From the NCBI GenBank assembly GCA_965198235.1, contig OZ240248.1, positions 4,544,001-4,608,000 on the forward strand: a DNA stretch of 64,000 nucleotides, written 5' to 3'. The translations under genes were made by a program, and so were the position numbers. Origin of the DNA: Candidatus Poribacteria bacterium. GTDB lineage: Bacteria; Poribacteria; WGA-4E; WGA-3G. Within the stretch, counting starts at the first letter, position 1. Every line of letters begins with the position of its first letter. The notes below the pieces were generated by a model that saw only the letters and a program-made list of their open reading frames with translations, was not told the origin of the DNA and made no database searches. Below, in pieces: positions 37,975 through 41,110 of this stretch.

Positions 37975-38003
37975 TTGACAATATAAAACAGATGTGGTAT
38001 TAT
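37975..38003 (+). promoter_or_regulatory. Sigma70 promoter of leader-hisI-trpE-trpG
   Basis: TTGACA-17 nt-TATTAT with TGn extension. Confidence 0.8.
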
Positions 38004-38068
38004 TAATATTAAGCGTGGATACATCCAAAAATTTGGCAGTTATCAACCATTGTTGAGAAGCGAAAAGA

Positions 38069-38170
38069 ATGACACTTTTACGTTCACACTCCAGCTTGCA
38101 TAGCATATCTAACCATTGGCATTGGTGGCGGTCCAATGGCTTGTGGGGGAGTGTGCGTTCAAACGGATAA
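38069..38170 (+). CDS. Attenuator leader peptide (33 aa, His/Trp-rich)
   Basis: MTLLRSHSSLHSISNHWHWWRSNGLWGSVRSNG*; 4 His + 4 Trp with an HWHWW cluster; too short for the ORF track. Confidence 0.85.
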   Translation: MTLLRSHSSLHSISNHWHWWRSNGLWGSVRSNG

Positions 38171-38220
38171 CTGAGATAGAGACTGAAAATCGTCATTTTT
38201 TATTTTTAAGTCCTGTTGAA

Positions 38221-38262
38221 GCCTTATGCACACCGATCCCGGTAGCATAGGGTATTTTTTTT
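38221..38262 (+). terminator. Attenuator terminator
   Basis: gccttatgc...gcatagggt followed by a + T8, about 53 nt before the hisI start. Confidence 0.85.
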
Positions 38263-38315
38263 GCAAAGTTCGCAGATTGCCAAAATTTGCTGTTGAAAAT
38301 GAAGAGGAGAACTCA

Positions 38316-38696
38316 ATGAAAATTCTATCGGAACTTAAGTATGACCGCGATGGTTTAGTCGCTGCAGTCATTCAAGATGAAACAAACAACGAAATCCTAA
38401 TGGTAGGCTATATGAACGCTGAGGCGATAAGTGAAACGCTGAGTACAGGGCGCGTCTGCTTCTGGAGTCGTTCCCGTCAAAAGTTGTGGATAAAGGGGGA
38501 GACTTCAGGGCATACACAGACGGTTAAATCTATCGCAGTAGATTGTGACGGTGATGCCCTGCTTATAAAGGTTGAGCAGAAGGTAGCGGCGTGCCATACG
38601 GGTTATCGCTCCTGCTTCTTTCGAGAAGTTTCCCCCGACGGAGAATCAACGCATGTAGTAGGTGAAAAGATTTTCGATGCAGATGCCGTCTATTAG
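38316..38696 (+). CDS. hisI: Phosphoribosyl-AMP cyclohydrolase
   Basis: WSRSRQKLWIKGETSG, DCDGD, ACHTGYRSCF; GAGGAG SD. Confidence 0.96.
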   Translation: MKILSELKYDRDGLVAAVIQDETNNEILMVGYMNAEAISETLSTGRVCFWSRSRQKLWIKGETSGHTQTVKSIAVDCDGDALLIKVEQKVAACHTGYRSCFFREVSPDGESTHVVGEKIFDADAVY

Positions 38697-38702
38697 ACTC
38701 CA

Positions 38703-38733
38703 AGTTGTGGGAGGGCTTTGTAAGCCCGATTTC
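38703..38733 (+). repeat. REP-like palindrome (intergenic hisI-trpE)
   Basis: Identical to 35468-35498; gggctt-tgt-aagccc stem. Confidence 0.85.
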
Positions 38734-38910
38734 GTATCTTGGCATCCGCTCGGGAATTGCTTGAGTAAGTTCATCTATGGTCTCGATTTTAAGGATAACG
38801 AAAATAGAGTACCGGCAGTTGTAGACGCCTTTTTCAACCCTGTCTCTTGCAATGTCCGGTGCTATAGAACAGAGAATTTTGATGCTAAGGATATGAAAAA
38901 GGAGCTACTA

Positions 38911-40413
38911 ATGTATTATCCCACGTTGGAAGATTTTCGCGAGGAAGCGAAATCAGGAAACACAATACCGGTATACCGATCGATTATGGCGGATATGGAG
39001 ACACCGGTGTCTGCTTTTTACAAGTTGATGCCAGGTAATTATGCGTTCTTGCTCGAAAGCGTTGAAGGTGGTGAAACCCTTGCGCGTTACTCTTTTTTGG
39101 GGACTCAACCCTCGGTGCTTTTCCATAGTAAAGGGCATCAGGTTACGATTGAGTATTTGGAAAAAGGCGAAACCGTAGTTCAGGAATATGAAGATCCGTT
39201 GAATGCTCTTGAGGAATTGATGCAGAATTACCGGCCTGTTGACACTGAAGAGTTACCAAAATTCCACGGCGGTGCAGTTGGTTATATGAGTTATGACATG
39301 GTGCGCTTCGTTGAGGAATTGCCAGATAATACCGAAGATGAACTGCAGCTTCCGGATTGCTTTTTCATGATTGCCGAGACGATTTTGATATTCGATCATG
39401 TGAACCACCAGATCAAGGTTGTGGCGAACGCGCATATTGATGGAGATGTAGATGGAGCTTATACGGATGCTCTTGCGAAAATTGAGGCATTGGTCGAGAA
39501 ACTTACCGCTGCTTCCGAAGCGCATTTACGCAGGGATAGTGGCGAGCATCAGGAGCGGTATGATAAAATCATATCCAGTCCGCAATCAAATTTCACGAAA
39601 TCCGATTACGAAGCCGCGGTCAGGCGCGCCAAGGAATACATAGCTGCAGGCGACATCATCCAGGTTGTGCCTTCCCAGCGGTTTAGTTGTCCGGTGTCCG
39701 TAGACTCGTTCGAGATATATCGGGCATTGCGAATGGTCAATCCATCACCGTATATGTATTACTTGAAGTTTGATGGTTTTGACATTGTAGGGGCATCACC
39801 CGAAATGATGGTTAGGGTAGAGGACGGAATCGTCCAAACGCGCCCGATTGCGGGCACACTTCCGCGCGGCACAACCGCTGAGGAGGACCGGGAGTTGGAG
39901 CAGAAACTTCTCTCCGATCCGAAGGAACGGGCAGAGCACGTCATGCTCGTTGATTTAGGACGGAACGACCTCGGTCGGGTCTGTGAATATCACACCGTTG
40001 AGGTGACTGACTTTATGATAGTCGAGCGTTTCTCACACGTGATGCACATCGTTTCACATGTCATTGGACGATTACGCGAAGATCTCACGGCTTTTGATGT
40101 TCTGCGCGCGTGCCTTCCCGCTGGGACACTCTCTGGTGCCCCGAAGATACGCGCAATGGAAATCATTGATGAACTCGAGCCGACACGTCGGAGTACGTAC
40201 GGCGGAACGGTGGGTTATTTCAGTTTTTCCGGCAGTGCAGACACGGCGATTACTATCCGAACCGCGGTTATCAAAGATAGCACCGCTTATGTGCAAGCTG
40301 GTGGTGGTATCGTTGCGGATTCAGTACCTGAAACTGAGTATTACGAAACCGTGAGTAAAGCGCGAGCAATGCTTAGTGCTATTGCATTGGCAGAACAAGG
40401 TTTCTTATTGTAA
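38911..40413 (+). CDS. trpE: Anthranilate synthase component I
   Basis: [60 protein letters not shown] before ATG 38911. Confidence 0.95.
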
Positions 40414-40418
40414 AAGAC

Positions 40419-40531
40419 TTGGGTGGAAGGACGAAAGGGGAAGGAAGACCCTCGGATGGAAGGCTGAAAGAAAGGACAGATGGGTGCCCAGTCTTCCACC
40501 CGTCCAGTTTTCTCTCCCAATCTTCCATTCC
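40419..40531. repeat. GGAAGG / CTTCCA inverted repeat cluster
   Basis: Purine-rich tggaagg units followed by complementary tcttcca units between trpE and trpG. Confidence 0.5.
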
Positions 40532-40546
40532 ATTAAGGAGGAAAAG

Positions 40547-41110
40547 ATGGTTTTAATGATTGATAACTATGACTCCTTTACCTATAATTTGGTGCAGTAT
40601 TTGGGTGAACTCGGTGCTGACTTGGAGGTTCATCGGAGTCGAAAAATAGGATTGGATGCATTAGATGAACTGAATCCTGAACGGATTGTTATTTCACCCG
40701 GTCCTTGCACGCCGAAAGAAGCGGGTATATCTAACGATGTGATAAAGCACTTCGCTGGCAAAGTTCCGATTTTAGGCGTCTGCCTTGGTCATCAGTGCAT
40801 CGGGGACGCGTTCGGTGGTGAAGTCGTTAAAGCAGATCGATTGATGCACGGTAAAACCTCAATGATCGTACATAATGAGGTTGAGCTTTTCGAGGGGTTG
40901 GATAACCCATTCGAAGCCACGCGCTACCATTCGCTTATCGTAAAAAGAGAGACGCTGCCGGATTGCCTTGAGGTTACCGCTTGGACGGATCAGGATGAAA
41001 TCATGGGGCTTCGGCATAGAACCTTGCCTATCTGGGGTGTGCAGTTCCATCCAGAGTCGATTTTGACGGCTGCTGGAAAGAGTTTACTCTCCAACTTTCT
41101 GGCATTGTAA
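40547..41110 (+). CDS. trpG: Anthranilate/aminodeoxychorismate synthase glutamine amidotransferase component II
   Basis: [45 protein letters not shown]. Confidence 0.93.

Follow-up and report, generated by a model that had tools for sequence, protein, structure and literature searches.

Upstream of hisI, trpE and trpG in a genome of Candidatus Poribacteria stands a short leader open reading frame (ORF) in which histidine (His) and tryptophan (Trp) codons are interleaved and which is followed by an intrinsic terminator, and our analysis suggests that this leader is most likely a classical ribosome-mediated transcription attenuator with two inputs. It lies in a stretch of 64,000 nucleotides (contig OZ240248.1 of assembly GCA_965198235.1, forward-strand positions 4,544,001 to 4,608,000), which we call the window and whose own numbering is used below. 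The leader is a genuine leader-peptide attenuator throughout the phylum, and it almost certainly responds to Trp. Sensing of both amino acids is well supported by the comparison of related sequences, from which we infer stalling, read-through and selection for His sensing, and it is probable in our view that His is a second, selected input. A sequence-only reading of the window had proposed a ribosome-stalling attenuator at this site, made up of a promoter, a 33-codon ORF, three alternative pairings and a run of eight T (T8), and we recovered each of these elements base for base. The attenuator itself is borne out by the presence of the leader in 78 of the 80 closest hisI loci, and by a terminator and an antiterminator that are conserved and covary across Poribacteria.

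The leader ORF has His at codons 7, 11, 16 and 18 and Trp at codons 17, 19, 20 and 26 (Table 1), so that each amino acid accounts for 12% of its codons (4 of 33), as compared with 2.41% His and 1.44% Trp in the ORFs of at least 300 aa in the genome. We take this ORF to be translated. Four segments of the leader RNA can pair in alternative ways. Segment 1 can pair with segment 2 (cacactcc, 38085-92, with ggagtgtg, 38148-55), and inside this stem a smaller one can form over the control codons (ccattgg, 38113-19, with ccaatgg, 38133-39); segment 2 can pair with segment 3 to give the antiterminator (gtgtgcgt, 38151-58, with atgcacac, 38226-33), and segment 3 with segment 4 to give the terminator (gccttatgc, 38221-29, with gcatagggt, 38245-53). 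Both the 1:2 hairpin and the terminator are present in the minimum-free-energy fold of 38010-38270, whose energy of -75.4 kcal/mol (z = -2.73) is equalled by 5 of 200 shuffles, and segment 1 is likely part of a pause or "protector" hairpin. The promoter is the joint-best of eight promoter-like sites in 37500-41500, relatives from other families have TTGACA...TATGATA at the matching position, and the transcript is predicted to start near 38010.

In what follows, L numbers denote the loci compared and f and f-g labels denote lineages, the window belonging to family f1. The leader DNA is present in all 36 same-genus genomes, and a BLAST match was obtained in only 1 of 24 sister-family genomes. 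Among the 80 closest hisI loci, 77 leaders were recognized by motif and one more in L034, where the core carries an insertion; no leader was found in L088 and L103, whose upstream regions are filled with repeats. In 79 of these loci trpE lies downstream of hisI, and the contig of the 80th stops. The motif search gave no match in 7 of 29 same-genus loci, and it would miss paralogous copies that lack the WHWW core as well as the core variant of L032 (HWHRW). L159, L160, L165 and L166 are possibly duplicates of genomes among L032-L111; with identical sequences removed, 79 distinct f1 rows were left. In the sister families the nucleotides have diverged and the layout is the same, with a promoter, a leader ORF, a GAGTGTGCC-like segment directly before the stop codon, a terminator of the form AGCCGTAGGCATAC...GTCTACGGC and a run of T. 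The leaders of f4g7 are ambiguous; only L136 (3 His, 1 Trp) was counted, and L140 (..FHHWC) and L141 (..FHYWC) have no in-frame ATG, GTG or TTG.

The alternative pairings were examined in a cross-family alignment of 37 sequences from nine families, with 500 shuffles and with slid controls. The terminator (10 pairs) is 99.2% paired, as against 27-47% in the slid controls, and eight of its ten pairs have changed on both sides, a result matched by none of the 500 shuffles. The antiterminator (7 pairs) is 97.1% paired, as against 9-64% when slid, and shows 12 doubly changed cells, which fall in two pairs (0/500 shuffles); examples of its two strands are GUGUGCGU:AUGCACAC in f1, GUAUGCCU:AGGCAUAC in f3g3 and GUGUGUCCA:UGGAUACAC in f8g22. 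This pairing, together with the covariation across the 37 sequences, lends strong support to the terminator and moderate support to the antiterminator. The pairings described as a "protector" in the sequence-only reading did not hold up in the same way. The 1:2 stem is kept in the 79 f1 sequences, with 94.8% of cells paired, and shows no covariation (86 of 500 shuffles are equal), nor does the inner ATTGG:CCAAT stem, which is 93.4% paired in f1 and equalled by all 500 shuffles. The inner stem (ccattgg:ccaatgg) is lost in f3g3, where another segment 1, CTCCTCC, stands opposite GGAGGAG, and a ribosome stalled on the Trp/His cluster leaves segment 1 uncovered. The covariation check across orthologs which that reading had suggested thus favors the terminator and, more weakly, the antiterminator, and lends no support to the protector and inner stems.

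The regions around the leader show some variation of their own. Repeats fill the upstream regions of L079, L088, L103 and L161, where they have displaced or replaced the leader. The spacer between the leader stop codon and the terminator accepts insertions, its length varying by about 55 nt between subgroups, and at 38174-38176 an insertion of 38 nt, similar to the insert of L037, is seen in RNA contigs from related strains. Some members of the genus also have paralogous leaders (L112, L115, L116 and L117, with remnants in L118, L120 and L121), which are absent from the genome of the window. These retain the MxxLRSHSSxHS start together with both segments 1 and 2 and with the terminator, have the WHWW core replaced (for example by ..MFKRWHNRRPNC.. 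or ..RFKTFKPCPRNWFNPCGWSTY..), and precede an MsbA-like ATP-binding cassette (ABC) exporter (TIGR02203, 475 bits, under the cut-off).

The proposed mechanism follows the classical scheme of attenuation. Transcription would begin at about 38010, and the 33-codon leader would be translated as it emerges. Where charged tRNA-Trp and tRNA-His are ample, the ribosome would reach the stop codon at 38168 and mask segment 2 (38148-58), so that segments 3 and 4 would pair and the T8 terminator would halt transcription before hisI. If the ribosome stalls at a Trp or a His codon before the last third of the leader, segment 2 would instead remain free to bind the nascent segment 3; this 2:3 pairing would block the terminator, and RNA polymerase would continue into hisI-trpE-trpG. 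The equilibrium fold of the full leader contains the terminator under every ribosome mask, as is expected of a kinetically controlled switch, and since it cannot separate the two states, we used folds of a transcript truncated before segment 4. If only the RNA 3' of the ribosome can fold, the modeled probability of the antiterminator is at least 0.95 for stalls at codons 7-23 and 0.00 from codon 26 onward, and it is likewise 0.00 for a ribosome on the stop codon. The stall-sensitive stretch of codons 7-23 holds His 7, 11, 16 and 18 and Trp 17, 19 and 20. Since this stretch of the folding model includes every His codon of the leader and all of its Trp codons but the last, the device would act as an OR gate.

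The argument for His as an input comes from comparing leaders that have hisI behind them with those that do not. Leaders before hisI-trpE have two to six His codons beside their Trp codons in 105 of 106 cases, with a mean of 4.1 His in f1 and with arrangements that vary between lineages (Table 1), as against about 0.7 His per 30 codons expected from the 2.41% background. Six leaders before trpE or trpS-trpE without hisI contain 0, 0, 0, 0, 1 and 1 His codons, and these are of the same family and have the same segment 2 and terminator as the leaders of the hisI operons. One of them, L151 (f8g20), combines a Trp-only leader and a terminator with trpS (TIGR00233, 387 bits) and, directly after it, trpE, and thus represents an attenuated trpS-trpE unit. 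On a TrpE tree of 35 rows the state without hisI corresponds to two changes, one for the f8/f9 class and the other for f4g4, which is nested in a hisI-bearing order (support 100*/95*), and in both independent pairs the His richness differs in the predicted direction. In f4g4 (L143-L145) the only hisI-like gene is a divergent form of 161-167 aa (45-47% identity) located elsewhere in the genome; it has no His-rich leader upstream, and its neighbor, judged from the N-terminal sequence alone, is presumably CobW-like. The sequence-only reading had stated that loss of the His codons with retention of the Trp codons would point to an ordinary trp attenuator. The opposite is seen, as His stands beside Trp in nearly every hisI-trpE leader.

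Several observations weigh against this reading, and some of them concern the attenuator and its mechanism as such. The number of antiterminator pairs that changed on both sides (2 of 7) is not above that of the shuffles, 133 of 500 of which reach the same count. In a purely thermodynamic model, the probability of the 2:3 pairing is 0.75 for a stall at His7, 0.99 at His11 and 0.96 at His16, and then only 0.49 at Trp17 and 0.02-0.04 at His18, Trp19 and Trp20; the 1:2 stem wins in this model at Trp17-Trp20 because segment 1, which precedes the Trp cluster by about 25 nt, stays free. Stalls at the Trp codons would therefore work only if the helix cannot close around the stalled ribosome, and only in that case does the invariant Trp run make sense. 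The ribosome-masked folding that the sequence-only reading had called for is thus favorable for codons 7-23 if only the 3' RNA folds, and unfavorable for Trp17-Trp20 and His18 in the thermodynamic model. With regard to expression, an RNA-library contig (run X3, 382 nt, one mismatch) covers 38019-38370 and bridges the leader and terminator into hisI, and further RNA contigs join the end of hisI and the gap to trpE. These contigs are compatible with read-through and co-transcription; they show no transcript ends, strand or level, and RNA libraries can hold DNA. In four sponge metatranscriptome runs from one study, contig cover is absent from 37800-37952 and starts at 38001-38026, which fits the promoter and which we do not use as evidence. 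With the starts of trpE and trpG corrected to the ATG codons at 38911 and 40547, the intergenic gaps are 214 nt (hisI-trpE) and 133 nt (trpE-trpG), so the three genes are not tightly packed, and there is room for internal promoters. Some hisI-trpE loci, namely those of f6g16, f4g8 and f1g12 as well as L088 and L103, have no recognizable leader. Finally, the total number of promoter-like sites in 37500-41500 is not above chance (8 as against 6.0 +/- 2.8 in shuffled sequence), which would suit a chance small ORF beside the terminator of an upstream or antisense transcript, with no regulation at all. Such a coincidence is hardly credible, given that nine families keep the ORF with its Trp codons as well as the terminator and the pairing alternative to it, with compensatory changes, and that the element next upstream, a cobalamin riboswitch, lies on the opposite strand and points away from the leader.

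The other objections concern His, and they favor an ordinary Trp-only attenuator in which the His codons would be mere passengers, maintained through RNA pairing or inherited with a duplicated CATTGG unit, and in which any response to His would be an unselected side effect. In f1, 78 of the 79 sequences have CAT for the middle His, and the A and T of this codon are part of the ATTGG:CCAAT stem; as this CAT is both invariant and base-paired, nucleotide and codon constraint are inseparable in f1. His7 (CAC) lies inside segment 1, and the N-terminal SHS.LHS is also kept in the paralogous leaders before the unrelated ABC exporter, so these two N-terminal His codons may be scaffold. L129 (f2g2) has hisI behind a leader with no His and one Trp, which has probably decayed, and among the three f4g4 leaders, none of which has hisI behind it, two retain one His. 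Only two independent contrasts between the presence of hisI and His richness are available (sign test p = 0.5), and for this reason the association cannot reach significance. Outside f1, however, the ATTGG:CCAAT stem is lost, yet His still adjoins Trp in new orders (HHHWCWWH, HWHWGW, WRHWHW, HRHW..H), and in L123 (f3g6) the His codon within the Trp run, the counterpart of codon 18 of the window, is the synonymous CAC. A passenger role also sits poorly with the 0-1 His of leaders that lack hisI despite a shared terminator and antiterminator, and with an excess of His over background in the leaders that have it. Since the CAT of f1 is paired, His7 falls in segment 1 and SHS.LHS recurs in the paralogs, the best evidence of selected His sensing is the cross-family pattern, in which composition is kept, order and nucleotide context have changed, and His is lost together with hisI. 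A device that was selected for Trp sensing only seems to us rather unlikely, although it is not a negligible alternative.

A further alternative is that the His- and Trp-rich peptide is itself functional and does more than read out tRNA charging. It could act as an arrest peptide, the nascent chain responding to a small molecule in the exit tunnel, or in trans, like peTrpL of Sinorhizobium. The WHWW core is almost invariant within the taxonomic order, and trans-acting trp leader peptides exist, as described in the accessible portions of two reports (PMC7298713, PMC7968998). Outside this core, however, the leaders share composition but not sequence, their lengths and ends vary freely, and the features that are conserved are the position of the stop codon relative to segment 2 and the terminator/antiterminator switch. 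None of the analyses favors a ligand, and we regard a functional peptide as very improbable. For the two-input attenuator, we lean toward a history in which a Trp attenuator gained control of the sole hisI of the genome and His codons were recruited to the stall window, giving a two-input OR gate for two unrelated pathways. The codons of the leader would then co-evolve with the content of the operon, and His would be gone or decaying where hisI may have left (f4g4) or may never have been present (f8, f9). Of the his genes, only hisI stands behind the trp terminator, and without His codons it would be off whenever Trp is plentiful. The sequence-only reading had instead related the mixed codons to two pathways that both consume phosphoribosyl pyrophosphate. 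That the codons of the leader simply follow the genes behind the terminator fits the comparison and is the simpler explanation.

Table 1. Positions of the leader elements and operon genes in the window, and cores of the leader peptides compared across lineages
Feature	Position	Strand	Description
Sigma-70-type promoter	37975-38003	+	TTGACA (37975-37980), 17-nt spacer, TATTAT (37998-38003), TG extension; 11 of 12 consensus positions
Leader ORF	38069-38170	+	ATG 38069, TAA 38168-38170; 33 codons, MTLLRSHSSLHSISNHWHWWRSNGLWGSVRSNG
Segment 1	38085-38092	+	CACACTCC, codons 6-8; partner of segment 2 when the leader is free of ribosomes
Control codons	38114-38128	+	CAT-TGG-CAT-TGG-TGG, His16 Trp17 His18 Trp19 Trp20; columns nearly invariant in f1 alignments
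Inner-hairpin 3' arm	38133-38139	+	CCAATGG; small hairpin above the control codons
Segment 2	38148-38158	+	GGAGTGTGCGT; 5' part binds segment 1; GTGTGCGT binds segment 3 (antiterminator)
Segment 3	38221-38233	+	GCCTTATGCACAC; terminator 5' arm GCCTTATGC; antiterminator 3' strand ATGCACAC
Segment 4 and T8	38245-38262	+	GCATAGGGT at 38245-53, T8 at 38255-62; intrinsic terminator 3' arm and U-tract
hisI	38316-38696	+	Monofunctional phosphoribosyl-AMP cyclohydrolase, 126 aa; NF000768, 174.6 bits (cut-off 126); GAGGAG ribosome-binding site upstream
trpE	38911-40413	+	Anthranilate synthase component I, 500 aa from ATG 38911; TIGR00564, 596 bits (cut-off 517.7)
trpG	40547-41110	+	Glutamine amidotransferase component II, 187 aa from ATG 40547; TIGR00566, 274.6 bits
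hisI-operon leader core, f1			..SNHWHWW(R/H)SN..
hisI-operon leader core, f2g5			..VSHHWHWWWS..
hisI-operon leader core, f3g6			..SHHWHWWWHR..
hisI-operon leader core, f3g3			..ATHNWHWWHS..
hisI-operon leader core, f7			..RGHHHWCWWHE..
hisI-operon leader core, f5g17			..DGHWHWGWC..
hisI-operon leader core, f5g18			..TWRHWHWRG..
hisI-operon leader core, f5g15			..SHRHWRRFNHR..
No-hisI leader core, f8g22			..IRFWRWWWRS..
No-hisI leader core, f8g20			..GTWCWWRT.., before trpS-trpE
No-hisI leader core, f9			..RNWCWWWRN..
No-hisI leader cores, f4g4			..KRWWYTSW.., ..SRWRHID.., ..RRWCHISW..

The order of genes after the leader, given as hisI-trpE-trpG in the sequence-only reading, is supported by the matches to NF000768, TIGR00564 and TIGR00566 (Table 1), and this hisI is the sole hisI match in a genome of 5.17 Mb (2 contigs, 48% G+C, 96.3% complete). 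The genes trpD, trpB and hisG are scattered at other sites of the genome, and no obvious Trp leader was seen upstream of its trpD and trpB. No match to hisE (TIGR03188) was found in this 96.3%-complete genome, although hisI is monofunctional; hisE may be unassembled, or an unrelated pyrophosphatase may take its place. Downstream of trpG lies panB, on the opposite strand. On the upstream side, the cobalamin riboswitch (RF00174, 37534-37766, minus strand, 93.4 bits, E = 2e-23) diverges from the leader promoter, and the 310-aa ORF behind it (36612-37544) has no NCBIfam match. The gap between hisI and trpE (38697-38910) has a median length of 175 nt across 79 loci and carries conserved motifs, among them TTTCGTATCTTGGCATC... 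close to its hisI end and ATGCTAAGGATAYGAAAAGGAG ahead of trpE. A conserved motif is located at about 38730-38760, and the gap may contain an internal promoter or a processing site. A second attenuator in this gap was considered and rejected, since of 74 gaps 5 have a hairpin with T5 and 7 have a W-rich ORF.

A canonical His leader also occurs at another site of this genome (C1 ~2973570-2973910, minus strand; L167/L169), with the peptide MCNAITFNIHHHHSVHFWVERMRGK (HHHH plus one more His), followed by a hairpin and T9. It precedes a hisS/hisZ-like gene (TIGR00442, 280.7 bits, just below the cut-off of 286.75) and hisG, and its DNA is kept in all 36 same-genus genomes. Attenuation through His codons is therefore already used in this lineage. 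A small repeat of about 40-55 nt is also present in many copies per genome in the genus (for example at C1:2127078-2127119 and at positions 261-320 of the L167 query).

The Poribacteria of these loci are sponge symbionts, and our analysis indicates that a candidate phylum of uncultured symbionts uses leader-peptide attenuation, with a leader that mixes two unrelated amino acids in a way that matches a chimeric operon. To our knowledge, the multi-amino-acid leaders described so far serve connected pathways. If our reading is true, OR-gate logic has been rewired by codon turnover after a gene moved behind a foreign terminator, and the leader would be a natural demonstration that the specificity of an attenuator can be reprogrammed in this way upon operon rearrangement. 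If confirmed, it would provide a compact natural two-input part for synthetic biology, and it would caution annotators that a "Trp leader" can report on a further amino acid as well. Testable predictions on the supply of His and Trp in the sponge symbiosis follow from it, too.

The leader works like the Trp_leader and His_leader families of Rfam and is not a member of either. Neither RF00513 (Trp_leader) nor RF00514 (His_leader) matches at E up to 10 in 37000-39000, where the cobalamin riboswitch is the only real Rfam match, and neither matches in L167 (the His leader of this genome), L151 or L149. It resembles trpL of E. coli and Salmonella in having a short ORF in which Trp codons are clustered and whose stop codon is so positioned that a terminating ribosome prevents the antiterminator from forming, in having 2:3 and 3:4 pairings that exclude each other, and in having a terminator with a U-tract before trpE. 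The trpL leader of E. coli has 14 codons, and its segment 1 contains the Trp codons. The Poribacteria leader, in contrast, is more than twice as long, its segment 1 precedes the Trp codons by about 25 nt, and His is interleaved with Trp; its first gene is hisI, followed by only trpE and trpG, with trpD and trpB elsewhere. With hisL, and with the His leader of its own genome, it has in common His codons in a leader ORF followed by a terminator. Canonical His leaders have tandem His codons, with 3-5 in a row in Firmicutes according to the portion of the paper available to us (PMC9413887), whereas those of the hisI-trpEG leader are single and interleaved with Trp.

Comparative surveys of attenuation have reportedly come from the Gelfand and Lyubetsky groups. 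No description of a combined His/Trp leader or of an attenuator in Poribacteria was found in the accessible literature (including parts of PMC9413887, PMC2965389, PMC1262725 and PMC1183508, with supplements and subscription-only papers outside the scope). In the sections of the sources seen, most of the documented leader-peptide attenuation is from Proteobacteria and Actinobacteria, and from a few Firmicutes (PMC2965389, PMC1262725). In Sinorhizobium meliloti, as far as the available text of the study describes, trpE(G) alone is attenuated and the other trp genes are in other operons (PMC6614838), and here too trpE(G) is the only attenuated trp unit, with the other trp genes elsewhere. Actinobacteria have classical attenuators with two or three UGG codons, also before trpS, and the leader-trpS-trpE arrangement of f8g20 parallels the trpS attenuators of Streptomyces, judging by the consulted part of that work (PMC1262725). 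The same portions of these two sources mention no His codons and no his gene in the attenuated unit (PMC6614838, PMC1262725).

As in the thr and ilv attenuators, regulatory codons for at least two amino acids are combined in a single leader, here within codons 7-23. The thr and ilv attenuators are multivalent for amino acids of connected pathways, which the operon serves jointly. The Poribacteria leader, on the other hand, brings together two amino acids from separate pathways, in a mix that mirrors a chimeric operon of one his and two trp genes.

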